A stretch of 50,646 bases of DNA from Eubacteriales bacterium. Lineage in GTDB: Bacteria; Bacillota; Clostridia; Oscillospirales; CAG-272. Numbering within the stretch: position 1 is the first letter of the stretch; the number at the start of each line of letters is the position of its first letter. The DNA lies in contig JAZRTS010000168.1 of assembly GCA_045652135.1 (NCBI GenBank), positions 1 through 50,646 on the forward strand. The letters run 5' to 3'. The notes under the pieces are model-generated. The model saw only the letters and a program-made list of their open reading frames with translations, ran no database searches and was not told the origin of the DNA. Positions 3,472-42,200 of the stretch are shown here, piece by piece. Position numbers and translations under genes: made by a program.

Positions 3472-3566
3472 CGTTAAAATACGGAAATTTTTTACCTTTT
3501 TCTGTGTCAGATGCGTTTTTTCGGCAAATAATACATATATAATTTGTTGAAAAAGGGAGACAAAAT

Positions 3567-3872
3567 ATGTATGTAAATAAGGTTGAAATTTGCGGGGTTA
3601 ACACCTCAAAACTCAAGACACTTTCAGAAAAAGAAAAGGAATTGTTTTTAAAGCTTGCCAAAGCAGGAGATAAAGACGCAAGACAGAATCTTGTAAACGG
3701 TAATCTTAAGCTTGTGCTAAGTGTTGTTCAGCGCTTTACGGGCAGACGAGAAAATCTTGATGATATATTTCAAGTTGGATGTGTAGGACTTATCAAGGCA
3801 ATTGACAATTTTAACACCGAGGTTGGAGTTAAATTTTCCACGTACGCCGTGCCGATGAATATAACAAGGTGA
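3567..3872 (+). CDS. sigG: N-terminal half (regions 1.2-2.3) of sporulation sigma factor SigG; truncated or split gene
   Basis: SigG-diagnostic N-terminus NKVEICGVNTSKL, NLKLVLSVVQRF, DDIFQVGCVGLIKAIDNF, KFSTYAVPM, then NITR-stop instead of IIGEIRRYLRD; 101 aa versus about 255 aa for full SigG. Confidence 0.9.
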   Translation: MYVNKVEICGVNTSKLKTLSEKEKELFLKLAKAGDKDARQNLVNGNLKLVLSVVQRFTGRRENLDDIFQVGCVGLIKAIDNFNTEVGVKFSTYAVPMNITR

Positions 3873-3874
3873 AA

Positions 3875-4396
3875 TTACCGTTCTGAAGCATCCTCATATA
3901 ATGAATACAGCAGTCCCAGATGATGTTCTTCATCTTTAATAATACGCTTGATAAGCGCATTTATCTTATGGTCGTCACATCTCTCTGTAAAGTTGTTATA
4001 CGAAGCTATTGCTTTTTTTTCACTTCGTATGTCGCCACGCAGCATTTTTACGAAATTCTGCGAATAATCAACGCACACACCATTCCAGTAAACGTAACGG
4101 CTTCTGTCACATACAGCGGCCCTGCAGTCACCGCCGAGGATATTTATCAGCTTGCAAAGCATTTCAAAGTGCTTCATTTCCGTAACCGATATACATTCCA
4201 AAACGTCGGCGGCGTAGGCAAATTTCGGCGGAAGTGATATGTGTTGATACGTGTATTGAAGTACGGCTGTAAGTTCTCCGTCTTTTCCGGAAGCAAGAAC
4301 CGACAGTCTGTCTGAAAGTTCTTTGCTGTGCCTTGTTACCTCGATTTTTGGATACGGTTCATTAAGAATACAGTTAAAGCTTTTCAATATATACAC
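3875..4396 (-). CDS. Ferritin-like / Mn-catalase (CotJC-like) domain protein, probably spore-associated
   Basis: GELTAVLQYTYQ, EMKH, DIRSE, DEEHH four-helix di-metal motifs; RBS AAAGGTG suggests the real start is TTG at 4387. Confidence 0.75.
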   Translation of the reverse strand: MYILKSFNCILNEPYPKIEVTRHSKELSDRLSVLASGKDGELTAVLQYTYQHISLPPKFAYAADVLECISVTEMKHFEMLCKLINILGGDCRAAVCDRSRYVYWNGVCVDYSQNFVKMLRGDIRSEKKAIASYNNFTERCDDHKINALIKRIIKDEEHHLGLLYSLYEDASER

Positions 4397-4524: not shown

Positions 4525-4773
4525 ATGCTTGATAAAATTATAGAAGTAGTTGCAAGGGAAATAGGACTCGATGATGAGGTTGTTAACGCTGACAGTGACA
4601 TCATCGAAGATCTTTGTGCGAACTCCCTTGATATAGTAGGAATAATAACAGCGCTTGAAGACACGTACGGAATTGAGGTGCCTGACGAAGCAATAATAGA
4701 TCTTCGTACGCCTGCGCTTATCGCAAATTATATCGAAGGTACAACTTCGGACGGTTCGGCTGAAAATGAATAA
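4525..4773 (+). CDS. Acyl carrier protein
   Basis: 82 aa, acidic, DLCANSLD phosphopantetheine-serine motif, ALEDTYGIEVPDE; RBS GGAGGA. Confidence 0.85.
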   Translation: MLDKIIEVVAREIGLDDEVVNADSDIIEDLCANSLDIVGIITALEDTYGIEVPDEAIIDLRTPALIANYIEGTTSDGSAENE

Positions 4774-6160
4774 ATACACGAAGTTACTTAAAAATACGTC
4801 AATAATGGGTGTAGGCGCCTTTCTTTCAAAGGTGCTTGTCTTTTTGCTCCTTCCGCTTTATTCATCGGTTATGTCAACTGCGGATTACGGTGTTGCGGAT
4901 ATTGTTGCGCAATCATCAAATCTGCTTATGCCGATAATAACTCTCGGTATCTGCGCGGCTGTTTTTAGATTTGCGTGTGATAAAAAAGCGGATCATGAAG
5001 CTGTTTTTACGGTAGGTTTTATACTGCTTTTGTTCAGTATGGTGTTTTTTGCGGCACTTATACCGCTTTTCAAAAAGGTATACGTTCTTGATGAATACCT
5101 GCTTTTATTCGCACTTTACGTATTCATGTTCGGACTTCATACACTTTGCGGTCAGTATCTCAGAGGTGTTGATAAGGTAAAAGAATTTGCCGTAAAAGGT
5201 GTGCTTTGTACTGTTTTTACACTTTTTTTCAATGTTCTGTTGCTTCTTGTTTTCCCACTTGGTGTAACGGGATACCTCGTTGCAAATATACTTGCTGACT
5301 TTTTCACGGTAATTTATATGTTCCGCGTCGGTAATCTTATAGACGCGTTCAAACCGAAAAAATTCTCCTTCGGTCTTCTTTTAGATATGCTGAAGTATTC
5401 GCTTCCGCTTGTTCCGACAACTATATGTTGGTGGATAACGAATATGTCTGACAGGTATATAGTGCTTTATATGATAGATGAATCTGCAAGCGGTATTTAC
5501 GCGATGAGTTACAAAATACCTAATATTGTTACGATGATAACGGGTATCTTTGCAGATGCCTGGCAGATGTCTTTGATAGATGAAAGCAATCAAGGCTCAG
5601 TAAGTAAGTTCCTTACGAAGATATTCGAAAGCTATAAAGCTGTACTTTTTATGGTAGGTTCGGGAATTATACTTTTTGTCAAGGTCATTACGGGAATTCT
5701 TATAAGAAATGACTTCTACGTTGCTTGGAAATATACGACGCTTCTCGTCGTAGCAACAGTATGTATGAGCATGGTAAATTTCATCACTGTCATTTTTCAC
5801 GTTAAAAAGAAAAGCGTTAATTCGCTCATATGCGCTACCTGTGGTGCATGTGTAAATATAGTGGGTAACATTGTTCTTATCAAAGCATACGGTGCTATCG
5901 GTGCAGCCGTTGCAACTGTTATAAGTTATGTCGTTGTTTACGTGATAGCCACCAATCTCTCTCTGAATTATGTAAAATATAAGGTATTCTTTACCAAAAC
6001 CGTGGTCAATATAGCTTTATTAACGGTACAGAGTATCGTTATGATATTTGTTCCCGGAGTTGCATCGTATATTATTTCGGCTGTAATTTTTATTGCTGTA
6101 GTAGTCCTGAATATTCCCGTGTTTCTTTATTCTGCAAAGTCTATACTGAAAAGTAAATAA
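4766..6160 (+). CDS. Wzx/MOP-family polysaccharide flippase
   Basis: About 12-14 hydrophobic segments; typical N-terminus KLLKNTSIMGVG..SK..FLLLPLY; SDRY motif. Confidence 0.85.
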   Translation: MNKYTKLLKNTSIMGVGAFLSKVLVFLLLPLYSSVMSTADYGVADIVAQSSNLLMPIITLGICAAVFRFACDKKADHEAVFTVGFILLLFSMVFFAALIPLFKKVYVLDEYLLLFALYVFMFGLHTLCGQYLRGVDKVKEFAVKGVLCTVFTLFFNVLLLLVFPLGVTGYLVANILADFFTVIYMFRVGNLIDAFKPKKFSFGLLLDMLKYSLPLVPTTICWWITNMSDRYIVLYMIDESASGIYAMSYKIPNIVTMITGIFADAWQMSLIDESNQGSVSKFLTKIFESYKAVLFMVGSGIILFVKVITGILIRNDFYVAWKYTTLLVVATVCMSMVNFITVIFHVKKKSVNSLICATCGACVNIVGNIVLIKAYGAIGAAVATVISYVVVYVIATNLSLNYVKYKVFFTKTVVNIALLTVQSIVMIFVPGVASYIISAVIFIAVVVLNIPVFLYSAKSILKSK

Positions 6161-8872: not shown

Positions 8873-9187
8873 GTGAATGAACTTATAGAAAAAATTCTTA
8901 AAGCAGACGAAGAAGCACGTAAAAAATCACAGGCAGTCGAGGAGAGACGTGCCCACCTTGAAGCTGATATAACAGAAGCAAAAAACAAGATGAAAGCGGA
9001 ATATGACGCGGCGGCTGACGAGGAAATAAAAAGACAGCTCGAAGAAAAGAAGAAAAACGCGCAAGCCTCGTGGGATGAAGCCGGCAAGAAATATAAAAAA
9101 CTCGGTGACGATCTTAAGTTTTCATATAATTCAAATTATGAAAAATGGGCAAGTGAAATTGCCGAAAAAGTTATAGAAGGTATATGA
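8873..9187 (+). CDS. V/A-type ATP synthase subunit G/H (peripheral stalk)
   Basis: 104-aa charged coiled coil, first gene of the operon; RBS AGGGAGG. Confidence 0.65.
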   Translation: MNELIEKILKADEEARKKSQAVEERRAHLEADITEAKNKMKAEYDAAADEEIKRQLEEKKKNAQASWDEAGKKYKKLGDDLKFSYNSNYEKWASEIAEKVIEGI

Positions 9188-10236
9188 TGCGCACTGACAA
9201 TAAAAAATCAGTAACACCTCGCTTTTCCGGAGGAGAGAATGCCGCTGCGGCAAAAGCGAGATGTATGTATGCCGACCGTCTGACAAAAGACGATTACAAA
9301 GAACTGGTAATGTGTAATTCTGTCGGTGAGGCAGCGTCGTATCTCAACACCAAAAAACGCTATGCTGATATTCTGAAAAATGAACGCGCTATATCAGGTA
9401 TGCACAGAGAGCAGATAGAGTATATGCTCGAAAAGCGAAAGTACGGTGATTATGTAAAGCTGTCGGCGTATCTTATGGGAAGCGGTGATTATATCCGTCA
9501 TTTTCTCAGCGCACGCCGTGAGATATCGTTGCTTGTTCATGCCGTTTCTTCTGTGTGTTCGGGAAATTATGATGATTATTACTATATCTTGGCATCGGAT
9601 TTTGATAAGGAATCTCCCATAGATATTGCTATGCTTTCCGAAGCAAAAACATATGACGGTATTGTACGCGCTTGTGAAAGTACGGTTTATGCAAACGTAC
9701 TGAAAAAATATACTCCAAAGGATTCGCTTTACCCTGATATAGTTCATCTGGAGGCTGACTTATGGAATCTTTTATTTGGTGAGATATTCAGCCGTGTTGA
9801 AGAGCTACCGTCGAAAAGCGAACGTAATGAGGCATACGATATTTTTAAATCGTATATAGATGCAAAAAATATCGCCGCCGTATCTCGTTTCCGTAATTAT
9901 GCCGAATGTGATGCCGGCTACGTTTTAAGTTCTCTTATTAAATACGGAAATATAAGCGAAAAAGCATTGAGAGATATTTTTACACAAAGCGGAACCGGCA
10001 GTTCTCAAGGAGATAAAATACTTGGCGAGCTTATGGCTAAAGGATATGACTCGGAAACGCGTATATGCGAAAAAAAGTGCAGGAAATATTTACGATATTC
10101 TTCTCACCCTGCCATAACCGTACTTTCGTATCTTTACTTGCTTGAAACAGAGCTTGCAAATATAATAAAAATCGTTGAAGGTATAAGATATTCACTTGCC
10201 AAAGAAAAAATTACGGCAATGATATCGGAGGAATGA
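9184..10236 (+). CDS. ntpC: V/A-type ATP synthase subunit C
   Basis: AKARCMY..LT, YLYLLETELANIIKIVEGIRY; operon position. Confidence 0.85.
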   Translation: MMRTDNKKSVTPRFSGGENAAAAKARCMYADRLTKDDYKELVMCNSVGEAASYLNTKKRYADILKNERAISGMHREQIEYMLEKRKYGDYVKLSAYLMGSGDYIRHFLSARREISLLVHAVSSVCSGNYDDYYYILASDFDKESPIDIAMLSEAKTYDGIVRACESTVYANVLKKYTPKDSLYPDIVHLEADLWNLLFGEIFSRVEELPSKSERNEAYDIFKSYIDAKNIAAVSRFRNYAECDAGYVLSSLIKYGNISEKALRDIFTQSGTGSSQGDKILGELMAKGYDSETRICEKKCRKYLRYSSHPAITVLSYLYLLETELANIIKIVEGIRYSLAKEKITAMISEE

Positions 10237-10237
10237 A

Positions 10238-12139
10238 ATGTCTGTTTGTAAAATGTGCAGTGTAAGCATTGCAGGGCACCGTTCTTCACTTAACGAAACG
10301 CTTGACGTTCTTATAATGACGGGTGTTTTTCACCCGGATGAACTTAAAAAGTTCTATTCGGATATAAGTACGTTTACACCGTTAAGGGAAGAAAATCCTT
10401 ATTTGGCAATGGAAGCATCGCTGAACACGGTACTTAAAAATTCTCCGCCTGCGGTGGGTGATTATAATTTTTCGGATGAACAGATCACCGAATATATATC
10501 ACGCACTTCAAAAGTCGGCGAGGAGATAGAATCGGCGATATCAAAAACTAAAGCAGAGCTTGAGGAAAAAAAGAAATATCACCATATAATAAAGCATTTT
10601 AAGGGAATAAATGTTGATCTCGAAGATGTATTCGCGTGCGAGTATACGTACGTGTCGTTTGGTGTCTTCTCGAAGGAAGCTTATGAAAAGTTTAAAAGCA
10701 ATTATGCAAAAACGGATATAATTTTTTATCCTGCGCATGAAGGAAGCGAAATGTGCTACGGTGTGTATTTCGCGCCTATACAACAAAAAGAAGAAGCAAA
10801 GAGAATTTTCTCGAGTTTGTATTTTGAAAAATTGCCAATAAAAGGCGAAAAGGGAACTCCGCTTTATATTGCAGAGAATCTTGAAAAACAGATAGCGGAG
10901 CTTGAAGAAAGTTTAAAAACGCTTACGGAAAAACAAGTCTCTCACGCAAAAGAAGAACAAAAAATGTGTTCTGAAATGCTTGCATGTGTACTTAAAAGAA
11001 AGAAAGGTTTTGAGCTTCGCAAATATGCGGCAATTTATGACGACCGCTTTATTATTTGCGGCTGGTGTCCGGCAGAAGACGGAGAAACACTGAAAAACGA
11101 GGTTTTGAAGATATCCGGTAACGAGCTGACTTTGGAAGCTGTTGGTAAGGAAACAAAGCTTTCACCGCCTGTTAAATTAAAAAACAATCCAATCGTAAGA
11201 CCGTATGAGTATTATGTGGGAATGTACGGACTTCCGTCGTATAAAGAGAGTGATCCTACGGCGTTCGTTGCTATCACCTATACACTTCTTTTCGGAATTA
11301 TGTTCGGTGATCTCGGACAAGGTCTCGTTCTTTCGCTTGTCGGTTATCTTATGTGGAAGCTTAAAAAGATGCCGCTTGGCAAGATACTTATCCCGTGCGG
11401 TATATCATCTGCTGTATTCGGTCTCATATACGGTTCGGTGTTCGGTTTTGAGGAACTTCTCAATCCGATGTTTCACGCACTCGGATTTCATGAAAAACCC
11501 ATAGAGGTTATGAAGCCGGAAACGACGCAAATGATAATTTACGGCGCGGTGGGCGCAGGTGCTCTCCTCGTTCTTGTGTCGATAATTATGAATATCTTTT
11601 CATGTATTAAGCAGAAAAAAACGGCTCATTCAGTCTTTTCATCGAACGGCGTAGCCGGAATACTGTTTTACTTGAGTGTTTTCTCACTTCTGTTTTTGGA
11701 AAATGCGCAGACGTTTGCAATTCCGGTTATTACAGTAACGCTTATTCTGATGTTCTTCTGCGAGCCTTTGACAAGACTGTGCGAAAAAAAGAAGCCTCTT
11801 GAAGATGGACAAGGTGTGTCCGACTTCATAATGCAAACATTCTTTGAACTGTTTGAAACGGTACTCAGTTACGTAACCAATACGATGTCATTCTTGCGTG
11901 TCGGCGCATTCATACTTGTTCACGCAGGTATGATGAAGGTCGTTTTCACACTTGCGGAAATGTCATCGGGTGCGCCGTACGTGATAATTCTTATAGTCGG
12001 CAACGCGCTCGTGCTTTGCCTTGAAGCGCTTCTTGTCGGTATTCAGGTGTTAAGACTTGAATTTTACGAAATGTTTTCAAGATTTTACACAGGCGAGGGT
12101 GAAGCGTACGCACCTGTGTCTGAAAAAGAAACTGTTTAA
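10238..12139 (+). CDS. ntpI: V/A-type ATP synthase subunit I (a)
   Basis: YGLPSY.E.DPT, FGIMFGDLGQG, NTMSFLRVGAF, IQVLRLEFYEMFSRFY. Confidence 0.95.
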   Translation: MSVCKMCSVSIAGHRSSLNETLDVLIMTGVFHPDELKKFYSDISTFTPLREENPYLAMEASLNTVLKNSPPAVGDYNFSDEQITEYISRTSKVGEEIESAISKTKAELEEKKKYHHIIKHFKGINVDLEDVFACEYTYVSFGVFSKEAYEKFKSNYAKTDIIFYPAHEGSEMCYGVYFAPIQQKEEAKRIFSSLYFEKLPIKGEKGTPLYIAENLEKQIAELEESLKTLTEKQVSHAKEEQKMCSEMLACVLKRKKGFELRKYAAIYDDRFIICGWCPAEDGETLKNEVLKISGNELTLEAVGKETKLSPPVKLKNNPIVRPYEYYVGMYGLPSYKESDPTAFVAITYTLLFGIMFGDLGQGLVLSLVGYLMWKLKKMPLGKILIPCGISSAVFGLIYGSVFGFEELLNPMFHALGFHEKPIEVMKPETTQMIIYGAVGAGALLVLVSIIMNIFSCIKQKKTAHSVFSSNGVAGILFYLSVFSLLFLENAQTFAIPVITVTLILMFFCEPLTRLCEKKKPLEDGQGVSDFIMQTFFELFETVLSYVTNTMSFLRVGAFILVHAGMMKVVFTLAEMSSGAPYVIILIVGNALVLCLEALLVGIQVLRLEFYEMFSRFYTGEGEAYAPVSEKETV

Positions 12140-12163
12140 AATATAAAATGCCGTAAGGCGGAA

Positions 12164-12640
12164 ATGAGGAAAATTATGTTAACTTCAATTATTTTAATGA
12201 CAATACCTTTCGTGCTTATACTTGCAACGGTTTTATACTCAATAAACCGTGTTTCGAAAGGTTTGCCCGCAAAGTCTGCACTTACACGCCAGCTTTGCTC
12301 ATTCATCTGTATATTTGCAATATCTTCGATGCTTGTATTTGCTGTATCCGCTGCAGATGCAGAATCGGCTGATGTGCCCGTAAGTACAGAAGCATCTGAA
12401 GAAACGGAAGAAAAGGATTCCGATATATCCGATGGCCTCGGATATCTTGCCGCTGCACTTGTTACAGGTACTGCCGGCATCGGCGGCGGTCTTGCCGTTG
12501 CATCAGCAGCACCTGCCGCTATCGGTGCTACATCAGAAGATCCCAAGGCGTTCGGTAAAGCACTTATTTTCGTTGCTTTGGGCGAAGGTATCGCCCTTTA
12601 CGGACTTCTTGTTTCGATTCTTATACTCAACAAAATATAA
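12164..12640 (+). CDS. ntpK: V/A-type ATP synthase subunit K (c, proteolipid)
   Basis: AAIGATSEDPKAFGKALIFVALGEGIALYG with the conserved Glu. Confidence 0.93.
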   Translation: MRKIMLTSIILMTIPFVLILATVLYSINRVSKGLPAKSALTRQLCSFICIFAISSMLVFAVSAADAESADVPVSTEASEETEEKDSDISDGLGYLAAALVTGTAGIGGGLAVASAAPAAIGATSEDPKAFGKALIFVALGEGIALYGLLVSILILNKI

Positions 12641-12641
12641 A

Positions 12642-12950
12642 ATGAGATTTTACGTAATAAGCGATAATATCGATACTGTTACGGGGATGCGTCTTGCAGG
12701 CATTGAGGGTGTTATTGTACACGATGCCGAGGGCGTAACAAAAGAGATAGAAAAGGCATCTGCTGATGAAAGTATAGGTGTGCTTCTCATAACAGAGCTG
12801 CTTGTTTCGATGTGCCCTGAGCTTATATACGATATAAAGCTTAACCGCCGCCGTCCCCTTATTGTCGAAATACCTGACAGACACAGCGCGGGACGGTCAA
12901 AGGATTCGATAAAAAAATATGTCCGTGATGCAATAGGAGTAAAGGTTTGA
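12642..12950 (+). CDS. ntpG: V/A-type ATP synthase subunit F
   Basis: Real start ATG 12642: MRFYVISDNIDTVTGMRLAGIEG...IVEIPD...VRDAIGVKV (Enterococcus nomenclature ntpG). Confidence 0.92.
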   Translation: MRFYVISDNIDTVTGMRLAGIEGVIVHDAEGVTKEIEKASADESIGVLLITELLVSMCPELIYDIKLNRRRPLIVEIPDRHSAGRSKDSIKKYVRDAIGVKV

Positions 12951-13552
12951 TGACCGATTTGGATAAAAAAATAAATGAACTGATTGCGGATATACGGAAT
13001 CAGTCCGAAAATGAAAATAAAAACACGGAAAAAGAAATGGCTTTATACAAAGCGATTTCTATAAAAGAAGCCGAGTCTGTTTATAAAGCAGAAGCAAAGA
13101 AAAAAGTAAAAAGAAGCGTTGAGGCAGGAAGTGCCGCTATTTCCTCAGAGCTTGCCGCAAAGCATATGCAAGCGAGAGAGGAACTTGTAAGACTCAGAAG
13201 TCAAATGACGGATGAGATAATAGAATGTGCGGCAAAAAAGCTTATTGATTTTACACAAAGTGATGGATATCCTTCATCACTTTGCAGATCTGCTGAAAAA
13301 ATGTCAGAAGTTTTACACAGTAACCGTATAGTTCTATACGTAAAACCGGACGATATCGTATATAGTGATATAATAAAGAAAGCTTTTGGAAAATATTGCA
13401 CGATTGAATCTGACAGCAGTATCATCATAGGCGGCATCAGAGGGTATGACAAGATACTTTTCAAACTGGCTGACGAAACACTTGATGAAAAGCTTGCTGT
13501 ACAAAGAGAGCGTTTTATACATAACTCCTCTCTTACCATCTCCATACGTTAA
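12947..13552 (+). CDS. ntpE: V/A-type ATP synthase subunit E
   Basis: N-terminal coiled coil, C-terminal IIIGGIRG..ADETLD; operon position. Confidence 0.85.
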   Translation: MMTDLDKKINELIADIRNQSENENKNTEKEMALYKAISIKEAESVYKAEAKKKVKRSVEAGSAAISSELAAKHMQAREELVRLRSQMTDEIIECAAKKLIDFTQSDGYPSSLCRSAEKMSEVLHSNRIVLYVKPDDIVYSDIIKKAFGKYCTIESDSSIIIGGIRGYDKILFKLADETLDEKLAVQRERFIHNSSLTISIR

Positions 13553-13579
13553 TACGGTTTTCGGGAAAGGCATTTAAAA

Positions 13580-15337
13580 ATGAGTAAAATGAATTACGCT
13601 GTTTACGGTATAAACGGTCCTGTCGTAACCGTTAAAGGTGTAACACCATTTGCTATGGAAGAAATGGTGTATGTGGGTCATGACCGACTCATAGGCGAGG
13701 TCATATCAGTAAACAAAGAATATGTAACTATACAGGTTTATGAAGATACAGTCGGATTGAAAACAGGTGAACCTGTTGTCGGAAGCGGTGCTTCGATGTC
13801 GCTTGAGCTTGCCCCCGGTCTTATGTCAAATATCTTCGACGGTATAGGCAGACCTCTCAGTGATATGTATGAATCTCAGGGTGCATTTATAAATGTCGGA
13901 TATGAAGACAATGCGAATGCAAAGCTGTGGGATGTATCGGTGAAAATAAAAGAGGGCGATGAAGTAAAAGAGGGCGAAATTTTCGCAACTCTGCCCGAAA
14001 CTCCTGTTATTGAATACCGCTGTACTGTGCCGTACGGTGTAAACGGCAAGGTTGTAAAGGTACAGTCCTCAGGTAAATATTCAAAAAATGATGTTATTGC
14101 ATACGTTATGTGCGGAGGCGCCGAAATACCGCTTAAAATCAGCCAAAGATGGCCGATAAGAACGCCGAGGCCTGTAAAGGAAAAGATACCGCCGTCAATT
14201 CCGCTTATAACCGGACAACGTGTTATAGACACACTTTTCCCCGTTGCAAAGGGCGGAACTGCCGCAATACCCGGAGGGTTCGGTTCGGGTAAAACAATGA
14301 CACAGCATCAGCTTGCAAAGTGGTGTGATGCCGATATAATCGTTTATGTCGGATGCGGAGAGCGTGGAAATGAAATGTGTCAGGTGCTTGATGAGTTTTC
14401 ACATCTGACAGACCCCAAAACAAACAGGCCTATGACTGACAGAACGGTGCTTATAGCAAACACGTCAAATATGCCTGTTGCCGCACGCGAGGCATCAATT
14501 TATACAGGTGTTACGATTGCGGAATTTTACCGTGATATGGGTTATCACGTTGCCATGATGGCTGACTCCACATCACGTTGGGCGGAGGCGCTGCGTGAAA
14601 TAAGCGGACGACTTGAGGAAATGCCTGCTGAGGAAGGTTTCCCGGCATATCTTCCTTCAAGACTTTCCGATTTTTACGAAAGAGCATCTTATGTAAAAAC
14701 ACTTGGTGGAGATACGGGTTCTGTCACGCTGATAGGTGCAGTATCCCCACAGGGGGCTGACTTTTCAGAACCTGTAACACAGAATACAAAGCGTTTTACA
14801 AGATGTTTCTGGGCGCTTGATAAATCGCTTGCGTATCAGCGTCACTATCCTGCTATAAACTGGATGTTAAGCTACAGCGAATATTTCTCCGACCTTGATT
14901 CTTGGTACGATGAAAAGGCAGGACATGAATTTATTTCGCTGAGAAAAGAAATTACATCCTTACTTAACGAGGAAGACGGACTTATTGAAATTGTAAGACT
15001 TATAGGCTCCGATGTGCTTCCTGATGAACAGAAGCTTATTATAGAGGTTGCACACGTGATACGTGTCGGATTTTTACAGCAGAATGCATTTCACAAAGAA
15101 GACACATACGTTCCGCTTGAAAAGCAAAAGCTGATGATGCACACCATTATCTACCTTTATCACAAGGCATCGGCTCTGATCTCACAGGCGATACCGATAT
15201 CGGACATAATCGCAACGGGACTTTTTGAAAAGCTCGCGACGATGAAATACGATGTGGAAAACGATCAGCTTTATAAATTTGACGAATATATAAAAGAGAT
15301 TGATACAAAGCTTTCGGGCTTCGGCAGAGAGCTTTAA
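13580..15337 (+). CDS. ntpA: V/A-type ATP synthase subunit A
   Basis: P-loop GGFGSGKT, GCGERGNE, PVAAREAS, EMPAEEGFPAYL. Confidence 0.98.
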   Translation: MSKMNYAVYGINGPVVTVKGVTPFAMEEMVYVGHDRLIGEVISVNKEYVTIQVYEDTVGLKTGEPVVGSGASMSLELAPGLMSNIFDGIGRPLSDMYESQGAFINVGYEDNANAKLWDVSVKIKEGDEVKEGEIFATLPETPVIEYRCTVPYGVNGKVVKVQSSGKYSKNDVIAYVMCGGAEIPLKISQRWPIRTPRPVKEKIPPSIPLITGQRVIDTLFPVAKGGTAAIPGGFGSGKTMTQHQLAKWCDADIIVYVGCGERGNEMCQVLDEFSHLTDPKTNRPMTDRTVLIANTSNMPVAAREASIYTGVTIAEFYRDMGYHVAMMADSTSRWAEALREISGRLEEMPAEEGFPAYLPSRLSDFYERASYVKTLGGDTGSVTLIGAVSPQGADFSEPVTQNTKRFTRCFWALDKSLAYQRHYPAINWMLSYSEYFSDLDSWYDEKAGHEFISLRKEITSLLNEEDGLIEIVRLIGSDVLPDEQKLIIEVAHVIRVGFLQQNAFHKEDTYVPLEKQKLMMHTIIYLYHKASALISQAIPISDIIATGLFEKLATMKYDVENDQLYKFDEYIKEIDTKLSGFGREL

Positions 15338-15346
15338 TGGTGAGAT

Positions 15347-16726
15347 ATGTTAATTGAGTATTTGGGCGCAAAAGAGATAAACGGTTCTCTTATCGTTCTT
15401 GATAATATAGAAGATGTTGCGTATGAAGAAATGTGCGACATCGTTCTGGCAGACGGAACGGCAAGGCAGGGCAGAGTTATTCAGATAGACGGTAAACGCG
15501 TTGTCGTTGAAGTTTTTGAAGGCACACGCTCGCTGTCGCTTCACAATATGAAAACGAGGATGAAGGGACATCCCATGCAGCTTCCGCTGTCAATGGAGAT
15601 ACTTGGCAGAACGTTCAGCGGTGCAGGTGTTCCTATAGACGGACTCGGCGAAATATTTGCTGATAAAATCTGCGACATAAACGGACTTCCGATAAACCCG
15701 ATAGCGCGTGAATATCCGCGTGATTATATCGCCACGGGTATTTCATCCATTGATGTTATGTCAACGCTTATAAGAGGACAGAAGCTTCCTATTTTTACGG
15801 GAGCCGGTATGAAACACAATGAGCTTGCCGCGCAGATAGTGCGTCAGGCGCATTTGCAGGGTGTCGAGGATGATTCGTTTGCCGTCGTGTTCGCTTCAAT
15901 GGGTATAAGCGCAGACGTTGCTGAGTATTTCAAAAGTACGTTTGCAAAAGCGGGAGTTCTTTCGAGGGTTGTAATGTTCTTGAATCTTTCGTCCGATCCC
16001 GTTATTGAAAGAATACTTACACCTCGATGCGCATTGACAGCCGCAGAATATCTTGCATATGAGCTTGGAATGCATATCCTCGTTATCATGACGGATATGA
16101 CCTCGTATGCTGAGGCTGTGCGTGAGTTCAGCTCGTCGAAAGGAGAAATTCCCGGCAGAAAGGGATATCCCGGATATCTTTATTCCGACCTTGCTTCGAT
16201 ATATGAAAGAGCGGGTATCGTAAAGGGTAAAAAAGGCTCTGTAACACAGCTTCCGATACTTACGATGCCGAATGACGATATAACGCATCCCGTGCCTGAC
16301 CTTACGGGGTATATCACAGAAGGTCAGATCGTTCTTGACAGAGCACTTTCGGCAAAGGGTGTTTATCCTCCCGTTGCGGTGCTCCCGTCACTTTCCCGTC
16401 TTATGAAAGACTGTATAGGTGACGGATATACGAGAGAAGACCATTCGGAGCTTGCAAATCAGCTTTTCTCAATGTATGCAAAGGTTGTCGATGCACGTGC
16501 GCTTTCGTCGGTTATAGGTGAAGAAGAACTTTCAGATAAAGACAAAAATTATCTTAAATTCGGTAAACGCTTTGAAGATGAATTTATTTCTCAGGGAGTT
16601 GACGAAAATCGTTCAATAGAAGATTCACTTGACCTCGGTTGGGAGCTTTTGTCAGTATTTGACGAAGGTGAGCTTGACAGAATAAAGAAAGAAACACTTA
16701 AAAAATATCACAGAAAAAGTAACTGA
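15347..16726 (+). CDS. ntpB: V/A-type ATP synthase subunit B
   Basis: [44 protein letters not shown]. Confidence 0.98.
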
Positions 16727-16740
16727 AAGGAGATGGCGGA

Positions 16741-17346
16741 ATGGCAGTCGCACCGACAAAAGGGAATCTTATAAATTTAAAAAAATCCTTGGCGCTTGCC
16801 GAAAACGGTTATGAATTGCTTGACCGCAAAAGGAACATCCTTGTCAGGGAAATGATGCGTCTTATTGACGATGCAGAGCAGATACAAAATGCTATCGACG
16901 AAAGCTATGCGCTCGCATATCAGGCGCTTCAGGCGGCGAATGTTTCTCTCGGTATTACAGCTGTGAGAAATGCCGCATCGATTGAGGAGGAAAATTCAAT
17001 ATCGCTTACTTACAGAAGTGTAATGGGTGTTGAAATACCACGTGTTGACGTCAAGTGTGATGATGTTATGGTACCGAGATACGGTATGCACAATACAACT
17101 CCGTCACTTGACGAAGCATTTATTAACTTCAACAAGGTAAAAGTGCTCACGGCGCGTCTTGCGGAGATAGAAAACAGTGTTTACAGATTGGCAAATGCCG
17201 TCAAAAAGACAAGAAAAAGAGCAAATTCGCTTAAAAACGTGGTAATACCAAATTTTAAATCGCAGATAAAGATGATAACCGAGGTTCTTGAGGAAAAAGA
17301 AAGGGAAGAATTCTCAAGACTAAAGGTTATTAAATCAAGAAAATAA
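16741..17346 (+). CDS. ntpD: V/A-type ATP synthase subunit D
   Basis: PTKGNL, GYELLDRKR, KTRKRANSL..VVIP, EREEFSRLK. Confidence 0.96.
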   Translation: MAVAPTKGNLINLKKSLALAENGYELLDRKRNILVREMMRLIDDAEQIQNAIDESYALAYQALQAANVSLGITAVRNAASIEEENSISLTYRSVMGVEIPRVDVKCDDVMVPRYGMHNTTPSLDEAFINFNKVKVLTARLAEIENSVYRLANAVKKTRKRANSLKNVVIPNFKSQIKMITEVLEEKEREEFSRLKVIKSRK

Positions 17347-24707: not shown

Positions 24708-25583
24708 TTATTTGTCGATGTACGGGGTGTTTTCAAACCCGGTGTTTTGTAATTTTGTAACTGTTTTATCCAATAGACACTTTCCTATTTTCAAAAATAA
24801 CGAATTATTTCCGAACCATTTTACAAGTGTCGGGCTTACTGCGTAGTAAAACTTTATAAACAAACTACCAAAACAGCTGTTTGCAAGTACCTGATCTCGG
24901 AATCTTCGAAGCACCCAAACTTCAGGACAGTTATATGATCCGTAAATACAAGTAGCGACATAACACCCTTGTTTTCTCGAAGTAGTTTTATTTGAAGATT
25001 GCTTTTCTGAATTGTCAAAGTGATGTATACGTGCAATAGGGAATTTTGCAAGAGCTTCGTCGATACGTTCCTTTATGTATTCTTGTTTTACACCGTATGA
25101 AGTCCATAATTTTATGATTGGTATTCCTGCTTCTTCGCAGATATCACGTACTTTTTCATCTCTTTCCTTACGATCTTTGTTCAAATGTGTCTGGTCATTG
25201 ATTTCTATGACTAACTTCGGTGTATATTCCGAATCTGTTATTAGAAAATCTACATTCCTGAATAGCTCGTTGTGAAATCTGGAGTTATCGGTACGTTCAA
25301 TAAATGCTGCCAAGTTTATTTGAGGAAAAACATAGTAATTTTCAGGTAATGATGCTTTTATGGCTGCATAAAATTCCTGTTCCGATGTAGTTATCAATGT
25401 TCTTTTTAAATCATAGAGATAAACGTCGTTGTTAATAATTTTTGGCAACGGGCAAGGTGCATCTTTATAATGCCATTTGCCGCATTTTTCGCATTTTATA
25501 ATTTCTCCGTTCTCTTTCTTTATATTACAAGCTTTACATAGTGGATATTTTCCACTTTCAGCGCCGCAAATATTACATTTCAT
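24708..25583 (-). CDS. DUF2726 (PD-(D/E)xK-like) protein with N-terminal Zn fingers and C-terminal CFI-box-CTERM-like domain
   Basis: CxxC..CxxC..CxxC..H..C; VDFLI...IEINDQTH..R.ERD..V..IC..AGIP; GCYVATCIYGSY..PEV.VLRRFRD. Confidence 0.75.
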   Translation of the reverse strand: MKCNICGAESGKYPLCKACNIKKENGEIIKCEKCGKWHYKDAPCPLPKIINNDVYLYDLKRTLITTSEQEFYAAIKASLPENYYVFPQINLAAFIERTDNSRFHNELFRNVDFLITDSEYTPKLVIEINDQTHLNKDRKERDEKVRDICEEAGIPIIKLWTSYGVKQEYIKERIDEALAKFPIARIHHFDNSEKQSSNKTTSRKQGCYVATCIYGSYNCPEVWVLRRFRDQVLANSCFGSLFIKFYYAVSPTLVKWFGNNSLFLKIGKCLLDKTVTKLQNTGFENTPYIDK

Positions 25584-26999: not shown

Positions 27000-28418
27000 T
27001 TAGAATCTGAAGTATAAGAACGGATTGAAGCTTGAATCTACAAGATATGCAATGCTTACCGTAAGGAATACCAATGTAACAACCGGGACGGCATATCTGT
27101 AAACCGTGCCGAGCTTGTTTTCGCTGAAATAAAGCTTGTAGAAAAGCTTTTTGGGAAGCGGTGTGCAAGCAATACAAAGAATAGCTACGAATACGAGATT
27201 TCTTGAAATTTCATACGCATCGGGTGCTGTAAGAAATCCTGCACCGTTTACGCCAAACATATTCTTTACATACTCAAAGCCTGCACCGATATCCTCAAAT
27301 ACGAATAAGAGCCAACCGAACAGCACTATCAAAAGTGTATAAATGTGGCGGAAGAATGAGGGGATTTTTTCAAGCAACTTGAGAAGAAAACCTTTTTCAA
27401 GCATCAGAATTATGCCGTAGTAAACACCCCAAAGTATGTAATTCCAATAAGCGCCGTGCCAAATACCTGTGAGAAGCCAAACGATAAGGAGGTTTCTGTA
27501 TGTTTTAAACTTTCCTTTTCTCGAACCGCCGAGGGGGAAATATACGTTATCTCTGAACCAGGTGGACAAAGACATGTGCCATCTGCGCCAGAATTCCGTA
27601 ATGCTTTTTGAAATATAGGGGTAATTGAAGTTTTCCAAAAAGCGGAAGCCGAGCATTTTACCAAGACCTATTGCCATATCGGAATATGCTGAGAAGTCAA
27701 AGTAAAGCTGCAGGGAATAGCACATAATACCGAACCAGGCGCCAAGTATCGAACGCTCATCTGTCGGAATATCTCTGAAATAATACCACGCTTCGCCTAT
27801 TGCGTTTGCGAATACTATCTTTTTAGCAAGACCTGCAGTAAACGTTCTTACACCTGAAGCGAACATATCAACGGATTCGAAACGCTCATTTAGCTGATCG
27901 TCAACATCTTTGTATCTTACAATAGGTCCTGCGATGAGCTGGGGGAAAAGTGTTACATAAGCACCGAATGAGGTGATTTTTTTCTGAACGTTTGCATCCC
28001 CTCTGTAAACGTCGATAACATACGAAAGAGCCTGGAAGGTATAGAATGAAATACCTATCGGCAGTTCAAGCCCAAGAAGCGGGATGTTTACACCCGGGAT
28101 AAGATTCAGTATGCTTCCGACGATAAAATCGTAGTATTTGAAAAATCCCAAAATGGCAAGATTAATTATTACACTGATCACTAATACTGTTTTTGCTTTT
28201 TTTCGGTTTTCCCGATATTTGTCAACAAAATATCCGCAAATGTAATCCACAATTATTGTGAATACCATAAGCGCAATATAGACACGCTCGCCCCAGCCGT
28301 AAAAAATAAGGCTTATGATAAGAAGCCAGATGTTTTTCAGCTTTCTCGGAACGAGAAAGTATACCGCCAGCGTGATCGCCAGGTATAAAAATAAAAATTC
28401 AAGACTTGAAAAGACCAT
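27000..28418 (-). CDS. MBOAT family O-acyltransferase (AlgI/DltB-like)
   Basis: MVFSS..FL, LPIGISFYTFQ, FPQLIAGPIVR, DFSAYSDMAIG, FWRRWHMSL, GIWHGA; RBS GGAG gives start 28418. Confidence 0.95.
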   Translation of the reverse strand: MVFSSLEFLFLYLAITLAVYFLVPRKLKNIWLLIISLIFYGWGERVYIALMVFTIIVDYICGYFVDKYRENRKKAKTVLVISVIINLAILGFFKYYDFIVGSILNLIPGVNIPLLGLELPIGISFYTFQALSYVIDVYRGDANVQKKITSFGAYVTLFPQLIAGPIVRYKDVDDQLNERFESVDMFASGVRTFTAGLAKKIVFANAIGEAWYYFRDIPTDERSILGAWFGIMCYSLQLYFDFSAYSDMAIGLGKMLGFRFLENFNYPYISKSITEFWRRWHMSLSTWFRDNVYFPLGGSRKGKFKTYRNLLIVWLLTGIWHGAYWNYILWGVYYGIILMLEKGFLLKLLEKIPSFFRHIYTLLIVLFGWLLFVFEDIGAGFEYVKNMFGVNGAGFLTAPDAYEISRNLVFVAILCIACTPLPKKLFYKLYFSENKLGTVYRYAVPVVTLVFLTVSIAYLVDSSFNPFLYFRF

Positions 28419-28636
28419 AATTTCTCCATAATAAGGTATTTTAAAAAAATTATACAACGATTATCATCCTATTTCAATATCGAATTTATGTATGATATGA
28501 AAACAAAAAAGCCCGTTTTTAAGAAATTTTGAGGAAAAATATGTGCAAAATAGTGAAGAATCGGCTGTATTTTTGTTGTAAAAATAGTCAATGTGTCAAT
28601 GGAATTTACTTTTTAAGAGTGATAAAATATATATGA

Positions 28637-40703: not shown

Positions 40704-42200
40704 ATGAGTGAGGAATTGAACACGGCAGAACAGGTGAATGAAGTTGATGTTTCATCTGAAATAGCCATTCGCAGAGCAAAGCTGGATACACTTAAAAATG
40801 ACGGTAAGAATCCGTTTGAGGTAACGAAATATAATGTTACTGCAGAAGCAGCTGTTATCAAAGAAAAATTTGAAGAATACGAGAATCAGACTGTAAGAAT
40901 TGCCGGAAGAATCATGTCAAGACGCGATATGGGTAAAGCAAATTTTATCGATGTGGCAGATTCAACGGGAAGAATTCAGACGTACATCAAAATAGACGAC
41001 GTAGGCGAAGATGTATTTGAAGGATATAAAAAGTGGGATATTGGTGATATTATCGGTATCGAGGGATTTGTTTTCAGAACGAGACGAGGCGAAATATCCA
41101 TTCACGCAAAGAAGCTCGAGCTTTTGACAAAATCACTCCTTCCGCTTCCCGAAAAGTGGCATGGACTTAAGGACCAGGATACACGTTACAGAAGACGTTA
41201 TGTTGACCTTATCGTTAATCCTGAGGTTAAGGATACGTTCGTTAAGCGTTCGCAGATTATAAGAGAGCTTCGCGCTTTCCTTGATGAAAAAGGATTTCTT
41301 GAGGTTGATACACCCGTTCTTCACACGCTTGAAATCGGTGCATCTGCACGTCCTTTCGTAACGCATCATAATGCGCTTGATATAGATATGTACCTCCGTA
41401 TTGAAACAGAGCTTTATCTGAAGCGTCTTATCGTCGGTGGCTTTAACAAAGTGTATGAAGTCGGCAGAATCTTCAGAAACGAAGGTATGGATATTAAGCA
41501 CAATCCCGAATTTACTTCTATTGAGCTTTATCAGGCATATGCTGATTATCACGAGATAATGGACCTTGTTGAGGAACTCTATGTTCATATTACGAAGAAG
41601 ATATGCGGTAGTGACGTTATAATGTATCAGGGAACTGAAATCAATATGGCATCTCCGTGGCAGCGTTTGACGATGGCTGAATCTGTTAAGATGTATTCGG
41701 GTGAGGATTACTACGAATGGACTTCTGACGAGGATGCACGTGCAAGGGCGAAGGCAAGAGGCGTTGAAATTGAAGAAGGTGCAACGAAAGGTGATGTTCT
41801 TGCAGCATTTTTTGATGAGTACGTTGAAGAAAAGCTTATACAGCCTACATTTATCTACGATTATCCCGTTGAAATTTCACCTTTGGCGAAGAGAAAGCCC
41901 GAAGATCCTGCGTTCACTGAACGCTTTGAGTTCTTTATTTACGCACGCGAGATGGGTAACGCCTTCTCCGAGCTTAATGACCCCATCGACCAGCGTGACC
42001 GTTTTGAACGTCAGGTTGCGGCAAAACGAGCAACAGGAGCAAACGCAGAGGTTGATGAAGACTTCCTTATGGCGCTTGAATACGGTATGCCACCTACAGG
42101 CGGTCTCGGTTTCGGTGTTGACAGACTTGTTATGCTCTTGACAGATAGCTACTCTATCCGTGATGTTCTCTTATTTCCGACAATGAAGCCGTTAGATTGA
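40704..42200 (+). CDS. lysS: Lysine--tRNA ligase
   Basis: PLPEKWHGL, YLRI..ELYLKRL.VGG, FRNEG..HNPEFT, ALEYGMPPTGG.G.G.DRL. Confidence 0.98.
   Translation: MSEELNTAEQVNEVDVSSEIAIRRAKLDTLKNDGKNPFEVTKYNVTAEAAVIKEKFEEYENQTVRIAGRIMSRRDMGKANFIDVADSTGRIQTYIKIDDVGEDVFEGYKKWDIGDIIGIEGFVFRTRRGEISIHAKKLELLTKSLLPLPEKWHGLKDQDTRYRRRYVDLIVNPEVKDTFVKRSQIIRELRAFLDEKGFLEVDTPVLHTLEIGASARPFVTHHNALDIDMYLRIETELYLKRLIVGGFNKVYEVGRIFRNEGMDIKHNPEFTSIELYQAYADYHEIMDLVEELYVHITKKICGSDVIMYQGTEINMASPWQRLTMAESVKMYSGEDYYEWTSDEDARARAKARGVEIEEGATKGDVLAAFFDEYVEEKLIQPTFIYDYPVEISPLAKRKPEDPAFTERFEFFIYAREMGNAFSELNDPIDQRDRFERQVAAKRATGANAEVDEDFLMALEYGMPPTGGLGFGVDRLVMLLTDSYSIRDVLLFPTMKPLD

Follow-up and report, generated by a model that had tools for sequence, protein, structure and literature searches.

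The 50,646-nt stretch of DNA analysed here (the window) carries the 5′ half of the sporulation sigma factor gene sigG, which stops at an attL-like junction, and the 3′ half lies behind the reciprocal junction (attR) on another contig of the same genome, C192. On balance, we read the junction in the window as a live attL: a recombinase switch would rejoin sigG in the course of sporulation and be reset later.

The split gene and its junction

An ORF scan and a profile search confirmed that the sigG 5′ half is real and upheld most sequence details of the first-pass annotation, which had described an N-terminal half with its own RBS and no lesions. The half scores 146.6 bits against the SigG equivalog NF006071 (positions 1-99 of 258) and 138.2 bits against TIGR02850, and lower as SigF (97.7 bits) or SigK (76.6 bits); GGGAG precedes its ATG. 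As had been described, homology to SigG ends past GTG CCG ATG A (3849-3858), the stop codon (TGA, 3870-3872) follows, and the convergent gene ends at 3875. Neither a region 3-4 half nor a recombinase was found among the 41 ORFs scanned in the window, in line with the same annotation, and the window itself contains no phage DNA. The start-less 3′ half that the annotation suggested looking for in the whole genome was found on C192, where it matches SigG positions 93-257 with 242.5 bits (181 bits as SigF). Neither half by itself reaches the full-length SigG cut-off of 372 bits; their separate scores add up to 389 bits, and jointly they cover positions 1-257. The genome holds no other sigG; its SigF-like (C188), SigK-like (C23) and SigE-like (C85) genes are whole by profile search, and it retains spo0A (261 bits), spoIVA (686 bits) and an alpha/beta SASP gene (104 bits). 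In the relative G264, the 5′ half occupies the classic spoIIGA-sigE-sigG position; immediately before it are genes for SigE, which scores above its cut-off (372.8 bits), and SpoIIGA, which scores below (142 bits).

Table 1. Features of the split sigG locus and its recombinase (positions in the window unless a contig is named)
Feature	Position	Strand	Remarks
Putative promoter and RBS of 5′ half	3504-3559	+	GTGTC 3504-3508, 14-nt spacer, GGCAAATAATA 3523-3533, GGGAG 3555-3559
sigG 5′ half	3567-3872	+	101-aa ORF; SigG residues about 1-98/99 (through Val-Pro-Met), a tail of about 4 residues, TGA
B arm of attL	3831-3851		sigG coding sequence; TTTTCCAC at 3834-3841
Central CC dinucleotide (inferred crossover)	3852-3853		First two bases of a Pro codon
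P′ arm of attL	3854-3876		Outside sigG; GATGAATATAACAAGGTGAAATT; matches the P arm on C192 in inverted orientation
Ferritin/rubrerythrin/Mn-catalase-like gene (convergent)	3875-4396	-	Stop codon and P′ arm overlap at the outer end of the arm
P′ side (core chromosome after the broken gene)	3877-50646		V/A-ATPase operon 9184-17346, galU, tsaD, rex, ftsEX, greA, lysS 40704-42200, rlmB
sigG 3′ half	C192:1116-1646		Behind attR
LSR gene	C65:4419-5783		454 aa

Upstream of the 5′ half lie aspS, an aldolase-like gene and a HAD hydrolase gene; the spoIIGA-sigE-sigG order is absent, and the neighbours of intact sigG in 20 relatives have none in common with the flanks in the window. The P′ side is collinear in three congeners (G002, G006 and G010), which also have an orthologue of the convergent ferritin-like gene at the equivalent position; its GC skew is positive and its genes are co-oriented with the 5′ half. 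The GGCAAATAATA block and a G-T-rich pentamer 14 nt upstream of it are kept before the 5′ half in nine members of the genus.

The break itself has the anatomy of a serine-integrase site. GGTGAAATT at 3868-3876 is 4 nt farther from the crossover than GGTGAAAT of the true 3′ half on C192, an offset that the annotation had noticed and that places the in-frame TGA inside the motif. The outward shift of the outer motif by 4 nt in P arms relative to B arms is symmetric, occurring in both arms, and the two outer arms, both non-coding, are inverted repeats of each other about CC, as in the attP of large serine recombinases (LSRs); in G264 they are a perfect 23-nt inverted repeat flanking CC. Across genomes, the sequence common to attL and attR narrows to CCGA. 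Conservation of the arms is limited to about 20-22 nt on each side of CC, with a pairwise identity in the genus of 75-86% within the first 20 nt and 29-42% farther out, and the arms co-vary between genera. The sites thus show the properties expected of serine-integrase att sites, which are short (about 40-50 bp) and have a non-palindromic central dinucleotide, imperfect inverted arms and an attP longer than attB. Within the window alone, the P-arm motif is not above chance, with one match at 3861-3874 (minus strand) and at least one match in 38 of 100 shuffles. The weak inverted match that had been reported around the ATG likewise did not rise above chance and was absent from the repeat search. 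The evidence for the site is carried by the reciprocal junction on C192 and by conservation in other genomes.

The same junction was assembled in the nine congeners with a recovered 5′ half (none was recovered from G004, and that of G009 is cut by a contig end) and in three more distant genomes, and three further metagenome runs, which come from two studies or more, yielded contigs of relatives that span it. Its presence in independent assemblies rejects an assembly chimera. The joined (attB-type) and attP-type junctions are absent from the contigs of the genome. Neither junction of the species, for which the annotation had proposed a search of reads, was seen in four metagenome runs with weak matches (4-5% of words, contig level). 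In metagenome contigs, loose ends at 3858 and 3862 resemble sigma genes from other organisms.

Recombinase, distribution and selection

The annotation had suggested looking for a serine recombinase adjacent to the 3′ half. An LSR whose orthologues accompany the split in other genomes is present here, but on C65, while the 3′ half is on C192; resolvase or recombinase domains in the genome are confined to C65, C218 and C222. The protein is of the TP901-1/A118 type, with Resolvase (PF00239, 132.7 bits), Recombinase (PF07508, 36.9 bits) and Zn-ribbon (PF13408, 52.1 bits) domains, and it matches the catalytic domain of TP901-1 integrase with 173.6 bits and the C-terminal domain of A118 integrase with 96.9 bits over residues 142-451. 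The Y-x-R-V-S-T motif with an invariant Ser13 is present in 16/16 aligned orthologues. The protein therefore has the make-up of a large serine recombinase, i.e. a catalytic domain with a conserved serine, and Recombinase and zinc-ribbon domains in the C-terminal part.

A small ORF, 55 aa long here, lies just upstream of the LSR gene and runs into its start, consistent with translational coupling. On the same strand, it precedes LSR in 14 of 17 genomes and 60 of 79 further loci, and its end usually falls no more than 10 nt from the LSR start; it was not recognised there in G021, G040 and G317 or in the other 19 further loci. It matches no known family, with one marginal PHROG match of unknown function (E 0.05). 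The other conserved small ORFs within 1.5 kb around LSR are just frames overlapping conserved genes. The small ORF is a candidate directionality factor. Given the overlap of the two genes, the source of LSR free of directionality factor, as a reset needs, is hard to see. The operon is preceded by GTATT, 15 nt and GGTTAAAAT, similar in form to the motif before the 5′ half, although the resemblance is weak; both promoter-like blocks may be of the sigma-F type.

Each of the other 10 species in the genus breaks sigG at this CC dinucleotide, as do G021, G025 and G040, and the break point is the same in every split genome examined; the annotation had asked whether relatives are broken at the same codon and had taken variable break points as evidence against its reading. 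Among 41 relatives, an LSR orthologue (50-89% identity) occurs in exactly the 14 split genomes, and the 27 relatives that lack it comprise 25 with intact sigG, two without sigG and none with a split gene. Further LSR-positive genomes (5 + 13 + 15) gave intact sigG in 0/33, so that intact sigG was found in 0/47 LSR-positive genomes checked, and the joined state in 0/47 assemblies. The distances of LSR and SigG between genera correlate weakly (r = 0.31, 91 pairs); therefore, horizontal spread by phages, as in G423 (see below), is part of the history.

Both halves are under strong purifying selection, and the LSR and the non-coding arms are under purifying selection too. For the N half, the fragment on which the annotation had called for this test, the median dN/dS came to 0.086 over 36 genus pairs (28 with unsaturated dS); for the C half, it was 0.099 over 55 pairs, of which 53 were usable. 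The dS of the halves is about 1.4-1.6; the LSR has a dN/dS of 0.071 and the small ORF 0.247. There is no stop or frameshift in either half (nine congeners for the 5′ half, 10 for the 3′ half). The 'attL-like scar' of serine-recombinase activity that the annotation had proposed is thus borne out as an attL-like junction by attR, the CC centre, LSR co-occurrence and the 4-nt shift, but it is a conserved, selected site and not a scar.

Layout of the halves and possible routes of rejoining

Some relatives carry both halves on one contig. In several of them, the halves are direct and compactly arranged, with intervals of 2.5 kb in G436, about 6.4 kb in four genomes of the genus g113, 6.8 kb in G264, 14.7 kb in L226 and 17 kb in G317, and these inserts carry unrelated metabolic or S-layer cargo. 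G423 has a direct layout across a prophage, a 170-kb phage-like insert in sigG that adjoins an orthologous LSR. An insert that could leave as one circle from between direct sites is found in the compact relatives and in G423, whereas the sites are inverted in G427 (37 kb) and G430 (449 kb), and the inverted interval in G430 spans EF-G, pyruvate kinase, gyrase-type genes, ispG and dxr. In these two genomes, inversion is the only possible route of rejoining. In the genus of the window, the halves are on different contigs, with lysS, the V-ATPase operon and other core DNA lying between them; in G010, the flanking core DNA amounts to at least 262 kb. In this genus, G021, G427 and G430, the halves are inverted or have core chromosome between them, which excludes simple loss of an insert from a terminal cell as the mechanism. 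The doubt that the annotation had raised about skin-type excision was justified, as the downstream DNA is core in this genus. Its suggestion of rejoining by inversion holds for G430 and G427; in the genus of the window, rejoining may be by inversion or by excision. The synteny of the G002, G003, G006, G008 and G010 contigs combined with GC skew did not settle direct versus inverted sites for this genus, and a 141-nt contig-end overlap graph with a walk into the G002 contigs (C16, 24.7 kb) also left a gap between the halves. Chaining contigs across species is unsafe because the species differ by further rearrangements; for example, G025 (dispersed) and G317 (compact), of one genus, have almost no synteny.

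The 5′ half, with its promoter-like region and RBS, stops at the att centre, and the 3′ half, which has no RBS, lies behind attR. Serine integrases (phiC31, A118, TP901-1, SPbeta) require a directionality factor for attL × attR recombination and favour attP × attB without it. We propose that, during sporulation, the LSR together with the small ORF product as directionality factor would recombine attL and attR to give intact sigG, with direct sites leading to excision and inverted sites to inversion. For the reset, the LSR alone would prefer attP × attB and restore the split in late forespores or upon germination. Because SigG acts in the forespore, as established for Bacillus subtilis and Clostridioides difficile, and the intervening DNA is essential, the rearrangement would have to be germ-line and later undone. 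A broader reading, to which we lean less and which we offer tentatively, is that a self-resetting, LSR-driven germ-line rearrangement gates late forespore development, with a sigma-F-dependent LSR and its small partner rejoining sigG in the forespore. Depending on the lineage, rejoining would pop out a small element or a whole prophage, split off a large core segment, or invert up to about 450 kb around the terminus. Vegetative cells would always carry a broken sigG, and lineages whose halves have drifted apart, like the genus of the window, would be locked into the system.

Other readings of the split are possible to different degrees. The LSR could flip or excise DNA stochastically in growing cells, so that only a subpopulation with intact sigG completes sporulation; this would amount to phase variation in the ability to sporulate or, in the case of a phage insert, to 'active lysogeny'. 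The same site anatomy and LSR evidence apply to such a population-level switch, no reset inside the spore would be required, inverted sites are generally the usual phase-variable layout, and in G423, where the insert is a prophage, the integrase need not be tied to sporulation. We nevertheless consider it unlikely, given that serine integrases need a directionality factor for attL × attR, that not one of the LSR-positive assemblies shows the joined state, and that the promoter form before the LSR operon resembles, albeit weakly, that before sigG. Decay in non-sporulating lineages or an assembly artefact might be suspected, as the source genome is a metagenome bin of 228 contigs with 4.4% contamination, and nearly all compared genomes are metagenome bins. 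This is largely refuted, and we give it hardly any weight: the low dN/dS of open halves at such high dS, the conserved arms and LSR, the intact spo0A, spoIVA, SASP, sigF, sigE and sigK genes, and the recurrence of the junction in independent assemblies all contradict a relic, which the annotation had listed as an alternative.

It is improbable that the halves are never joined in DNA and that the 101-aa region-2 fragment and a region-3/4 fragment assemble on RNA polymerase as a two-polypeptide sigma. The 3′ half has no Shine-Dalgarno-like sequence before it in 14/14 genomes and is immediately preceded by a terminator hairpin in G000 and G005, and the break falls within the conserved region 2.4 motif. 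A two-polypeptide sigma would fit two open, selected halves and the in-frame GTG or ATG codons at the start of the 3′ half, but leaves unexplained both the conserved non-coding inverted-repeat arms and the strict link to an intact LSR. Rejoining confined to the mother cell, as in skin, with the germ line never rearranged and SigG used or made in the mother cell, is quite improbable as well. To our knowledge, SigG is the forespore factor in every spore former studied, the G264 gene is in the classic position, and SigK, the usual target, is whole here; on the other side, the loss of essential DNA matters less in a terminal cell, and the characterised sporulation gene-intervening elements all act in the mother cell (PMC4191935, PMC5595907).

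Comparison with known systems and implications

To place the preferred reading, a rejoining of sigG that is later reset, we compared the locus with known recombinase systems. The TP901-1/A118 (LI) integrases share the domain set, the central dinucleotide, the imperfect arms and the outward attP motif, which is displaced by 4 nt here and reportedly by about 5 bp in structural work on A118. They serve phage integration, whereas the present module has become fixed in host lineages, many of which carry it detached from any mobile element. XisF of the fdxN element in Anabaena is an LSR that rejoins a gene during cell differentiation, as proposed here; heterocysts are terminal cells. The LSR matches the NCBIfam XisF model only in part (128 bits against a cut-off of 375) and is not a member. 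An in-frame split of a sporulation gene by att sites of an associated recombinase, as found here, is what characterises the sporulation gene-intervening elements (the skin, vfbin, vrin, SPbeta, gin and yin class). Their mother-cell-specific target is not shared, the target here being sigG, a forespore factor by established knowledge.

Skin, with SpoIVCA, in sigK of B. subtilis, C. difficile and others likewise splits a sporulation sigma gene inside region 2-3 and is bounded by att sites, but its target is sigK, which is whole in this genome, and not the forespore gene sigG. The LSR gene of skin is at the edge of the insert and often directly upstream of the 3′ half, as it is in 12 of 80 loci here; a preprint survey of sporulation genes reports this position for spoIVCA (10.1101/2022.02.25.481979), and a small directionality factor is described for the C. 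difficile skin (PMC5025042). SPbeta, with SprA-SprB, places a large prophage with a serine integrase and a small directionality factor in the sporulation gene spsM, a parallel to G423; SPbeta leaves the chromosome only in the mother cell, and the prophage stays in the spore (PMC4191935). The gin element in gerE of Bacillus cereus ATCC10987 is described as a non-phage element defined solely by serine recombinase genes and inverted-repeat att sites (PMC5595907), and the compact sigG inserts are comparable in the unrelated cargo that they carry. It differs from the present case in that gerE is a mother-cell gene and gin is a contiguous 28.6-kb insert. Searches of the open literature turned up no description of a sigG that is split or interrupted, although the supplementary tables of the survey might list fragments.

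For annotation, sigG in these abundant, mostly uncultured spore formers would score as 'absent' or 'pseudogene'. Public data hold 4459 short N-half-like proteins, few of them with a source name, labelled merely 'sigma-70 family'. Two named records, L210 (titled complete chromosome, strain LBM23126; compact 6.8-kb layout) and L237 ('isolate C64_1'; 170-kb prophage), carry the split and are directly testable if cultured. The system also offers natural orthogonal sets of serine integrases, att sites and candidate directionality factors. The characterised sporulation-linked rearrangements are all mother-cell events, the reason stated in PMC4191935 being that the genome of that cell is discarded. 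A conserved, selected split of sigG tied to an LSR in dozens of gut Clostridia species breaks this mother-cell-only rule and would imply that the inherited chromosome is rearranged in a programmed and reversible way, in some lineages by inversion of half a megabase. If true, this would add a DNA-level lock to the long-studied question of how SigG is kept silent until engulfment.

Reciprocal att-type junctions and two selected halves of sigG

Against the SigG equivalog model NF006071, the ORF at the window junction matches model positions 1–99 of 258 with 146.6 bits (97.7 bits for SigF and 76.6 bits for SigK), and its sole Pfam domain is sigma-70 region 2 (model positions 1–55 of 71). The SigG homology stops past Val-Pro-Met and is followed by four codons and a TGA at 3870–3872. 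The first-pass annotation, made from the sequence alone, had read this ORF as an N-terminal half ending at an att-like junction, with a 3′ half possibly elsewhere in the genome. A search of the assembly to which the window belongs (a bin of 228 contigs, 96.8% complete, 4.4% contamination) located SigG positions 93–257 on contig C192 at 1116–1646 (242.5 bits). No second sigG was found in these 228 contigs; the other sigma genes are whole (SigF-like on C188, SigK-like on C23 and SigE-like on C85), and spo0A, spoIVA and SASP genes are present.

By sequence comparison, the C192 junction (attR) is the exact reciprocal of the window junction (attL). The window reads sigG ...GCCGTG, then CC, then GATGAATATAACAAGGTGAAATT, and C192 reads TTTCACCTTGTAACATCCGTG, then CC, then GATGATAATAGGTGAAAT..., which is the sigG continuation; the two outer, non-sigG arms are inverted copies of one another. 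Across genomes, the sequence common to attL and attR narrows to CCGA, suggesting that the crossover is the CC of the Pro codon (window 3852–3853). Compared with the sigG arms, the outer arms carry the motif TTTCAC(C), or its complement GGTGAAA, 4 nt farther from the centre; the first-pass annotation had noticed this shift on one side, and it is present on both. At window 3868–3872, the TGA of the 5′ product falls within the GGTGAAA arm motif, and the 4-nt offset brings it into frame, so that the product stops four residues past the break. This ending is seen in most genus members. Pairwise arm identity is 72–89% inside 20 nt of the centre compared to 27–47% farther out; in distant genera both arms change jointly and are still inverted repeats, and the outer arms of one relative, G264, form a perfect 23-nt inverted repeat around CC. 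Judging from their sequences, the non-coding arms are also selected.

The first-pass annotation had also raised the questions of whether relatives are broken at the same place and how the fragment evolves. Among 41 genomes, the window's own included, sigG is intact (above the family cut-off) in 25, without a match in 2, and in two pieces with the same breakpoint in 14, i.e. 11/11 genus genomes plus G021, G025, and G040; the 5′ half was not found in G004 and is cut by a contig end in G009. Within the genus, the halves lie on different contigs in every genome and both reading frames are open. At a dS of ∼1.4–1.6, the N half has a median pairwise dN/dS of 0.086 (28 of 36 pairs usable) and the C half one of 0.099 (53 of 55 pairs usable), indicating that the split is old and that selection still maintains both parts as coding sequence. 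Both junctions were retrieved from 13 further genomes, all with identical architecture.

Coordinates and content of the features of the split sigG system
Feature	Location	Strand	Description
sigG 5′ half ORF	window 3567–3872	+	101 aa; GGGAG 8 nt upstream of ATG
Genes upstream of 5′ half	window		aspS, aldolase-like gene, HAD hydrolase
Ferritin/rubrerythrin/Mn-catalase-like gene	window, ends at 3875		convergent with 5′ half
Ordinary core chromosome	window 3877–50646		V/A-type ATPase operon, galU, tsaD, rex, ftsEX, greA, lysS, rlmB
DltC-like carrier protein (PP-binding)	window 4525–4770		far side of junction
Polysaccharide-flippase-like membrane protein	window 4766–6160		far side of junction
V/A-type ATPase operon	window 9184–17346		complete; subunits C, I, F, A, B, D; directly past junction
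CFI-box-CTERM domain protein	window 24711–25583	-	NF041770, 70.5 bits, exceeds cut-off of 40
DltB-like MBOAT	window 27003–28457	-	166.9 bits, under cut-off; far side of junction
sigG-linked recombinase	C65:4419–5783		454 aa; amid chromosomal genes
Another large serine recombinase of window's genome (G000)	C222		contig of 2018 nt
Another large serine recombinase of G000	C218		contig of 1130 nt
Insert in sigG of relative G423	G423:C5:57434–227032		loci L247, L248, L251–L253; prophage-like, ∼170 kb
attR outer flank	G000, G005, G008		LRR surface-protein gene
attR outer flank	G004, G009		similar-looking membrane-anchored gene end (likeness by appearance)
attR outer flank	G002		different flank
attR outer flank	G003, G006, G010		block homologous to G000 contig C29

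A dedicated, selected recombinase module

There is no recombinase in the window, and the resolvase/recombinase domains of the genome are confined to contigs C65, C218, and C222, which carry its three large serine recombinases. The latter two, on contigs of 1–2 kb, probably represent repeated mobile elements at which the assembly broke. In G010 (C31, near 105.7 kb), a homologue of the C222 protein adjoins the locus of the sigG-linked recombinase. The C65 protein has Resolvase, Recombinase, and zinc-ribbon domains and aligns with the catalytic domain of TP901-1 integrase and the C-terminal domain of A118 integrase; its catalytic serine is invariant among the aligned orthologues and its dN/dS in the genus is 0.071. 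Among the 41 genomes, full-length orthologues (50–89% identity; as two pieces in G001) are present in all 14 split ones and in 0 of the 27 others; the remaining matches, paralogues with just 33–34% identity, are in G025 and G029. An even sample of the order yielded the recombinase in 21 of 401 genomes, and the 18 new carriers have the 3′ half in 18 cases, the 5′ half in 16, and an intact sigG in none. Species-representative genomes were also scanned, giving 363 relatives, of which the best 80 loci were inspected. The 15 further genomes reached via these loci have no intact sigG, which is thus seen in 0 of 47 recombinase-positive genomes, the last 15 of which may partly duplicate earlier ones.

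A small ORF of 41–62 aa with the N-terminus M-x-(I/V)-x-R-Y immediately precedes the recombinase gene on the same strand and in most cases overlaps its start; it was found in 14 of the initial 17 genomes and in 60 of another 79 loci (dN/dS 0.247). It matches no known family, bar one marginal PHROG match of unknown function (E 0.05). Its position and conservation make it the most evident candidate for a recombination directionality factor. Upstream of it, close relatives share a conserved GTATT, 15 nt, and GGTTAAAAT, similar in form to the motif preceding the sigG 5′ half (a G-T-rich pentamer, 14 nt, and GGCAAATAATA). Judged against the general sigma-F consensus, both putative promoters may be sigma-F-like, a reading that offers a lead.

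Natural layouts, some demanding inversion

The sigG halves are direct and ∼2.5 kb apart in G436 (C1:63875–67195, locus L208), leaving room for the small ORF and recombinase alone, the smallest form found. Four genomes from a single genus have direct halves ∼6.4 kb apart. The halves are likewise direct, with a spacing of 6.8 kb, in G264, of 14.7 kb at locus L226, and of 17 kb in G317; in G264, SigE (372.8 bits) and a SpoIIGA-like gene lie immediately upstream of the 5′ half. The three annotated compact inserts (G264, G227, and G317) have no cargo in common and are free of phage genes, carrying either sulfite-reductase-like, LysR, and MarR genes, ThiF/ThiS plus an aldehyde oxidoreductase, or S-layer proteins. 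The direct sites of G423 are separated by 169.6 kb, and this interval, judged from three 20-kb samples, looks like a giant prophage: it encodes NrdD/NrdG, guanylate kinase, a DNA ligase domain, a PolIII-alpha-like protein, a phage tail domain, an amidase, a tyrosine integrase, and proteins of 1300–1900 aa, with an unusually strong GC skew of −0.28 to −0.40 switching to +0.15. G021 has core genes between its halves (his operon and dnaE).

The halves are inverted in G427 (37 kb apart) and G430 (449 kb apart on a single 705-kb contig), so that inversion, listed as an alternative in the first-pass annotation, is the sole route of rejoining there. The G430 interval holds EF-G, pyruvate kinase, ATPase subunits, gyrase-type genes, ispG, and dxr, with a GC skew sign change within. 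ATPase A/B-like genes lie near attL in G430 as in the window, where DltC-, flippase-, and DltB-like genes are scattered past the junction (4525–28457). In the 80 best loci, the recombinase gene immediately precedes the 3′ half 12 times, faces and abuts the 5′ half in convergent orientation 26 times, and sits between the halves once; in the other 41, the window's genus included, it is >10 kb from both.

Within that genus, the attL contig of G010 extends 205 kb past the junction and its attR contig reaches 56 kb before it, so the outer arms are flanked by no less than 262 kb of largely core DNA. The window's genome is collinear with G002, and its contig ends share overlaps of exactly 141 nt (59 edges), which allowed a partial rebuild of the assembly graph joining C210–C168, C207–C192, and C107–C89. 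The 5′ half is co-oriented with replication, and the skew stays positive for ∼90–100 kb downstream until a terminus-like flip where C107 meets C89; the 3′ half is oriented against replication, and in G002 the skew past it is negative for 237 kb. Direct sites flanking the terminus and inverted sites on one replichore both fit. The DNA abutting the attR outer arm differs between subclades (G000:C192:1–1100 versus G003:C44, G006:C49, and G010:C31), making it unsafe to chain contigs across species. Homology between these flanks is lost exactly at the arm edge, and the C29-homologous block lies 75–95 kb downstream of the 3′ half in G002.

Proposed rejoining of sigG during sporulation

[quoted passage not shown] We propose that the recombinase with a directionality factor would join attL and attR during sporulation, recreating sigG. 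Serine integrases without such a factor run attP × attB, and the factor-free recombinase may in this way reset the split layout. Such a reset would explain the split state in every assembly, mostly from growing gut communities. The overlap of the small ORF with the recombinase start would couple their translation, a coupling that gives factor-free recombinase no evident source.

No joined sigG junction was seen in the genome's contigs or in four weak metagenome runs for this species, and nearly all genomes compared are metagenome bins. A stochastic switch at the population level, in place of joining tied to sporulation, is unlikely but deserves weight. That the two selected, open frames act as they stand, as a two-polypeptide sigma factor, is improbable; on C192 no Shine-Dalgarno-like sequence precedes the 3′ half, and a terminator hairpin lies immediately before it. 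Joining in the mother cell only is what other interrupted sporulation genes would suggest, and for this forespore factor we consider it quite improbable. With both halves and the recombinase evolving at low dN/dS and the same break in 14 genomes, a relic or artefact is hardly credible.

Known intervening elements include skin in sigK, SPbeta in spsM, vfbin, vrin, gin in gerE, and yin in yabG; all interrupt mother-cell genes (PMC4191935, PMC5595907, PMC10747680), and excision is described as restricted to the terminal mother cell (PMC4191935, PMC5595907). No report of a split or interrupted sigG was found in the open-access literature. The sigG system differs from these elements in that the target is a forespore gene, the system is often detached from any mobile element, and the halves can be inverted and far apart. 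It would thus be a new variety of recombinase-rejoined sporulation gene.
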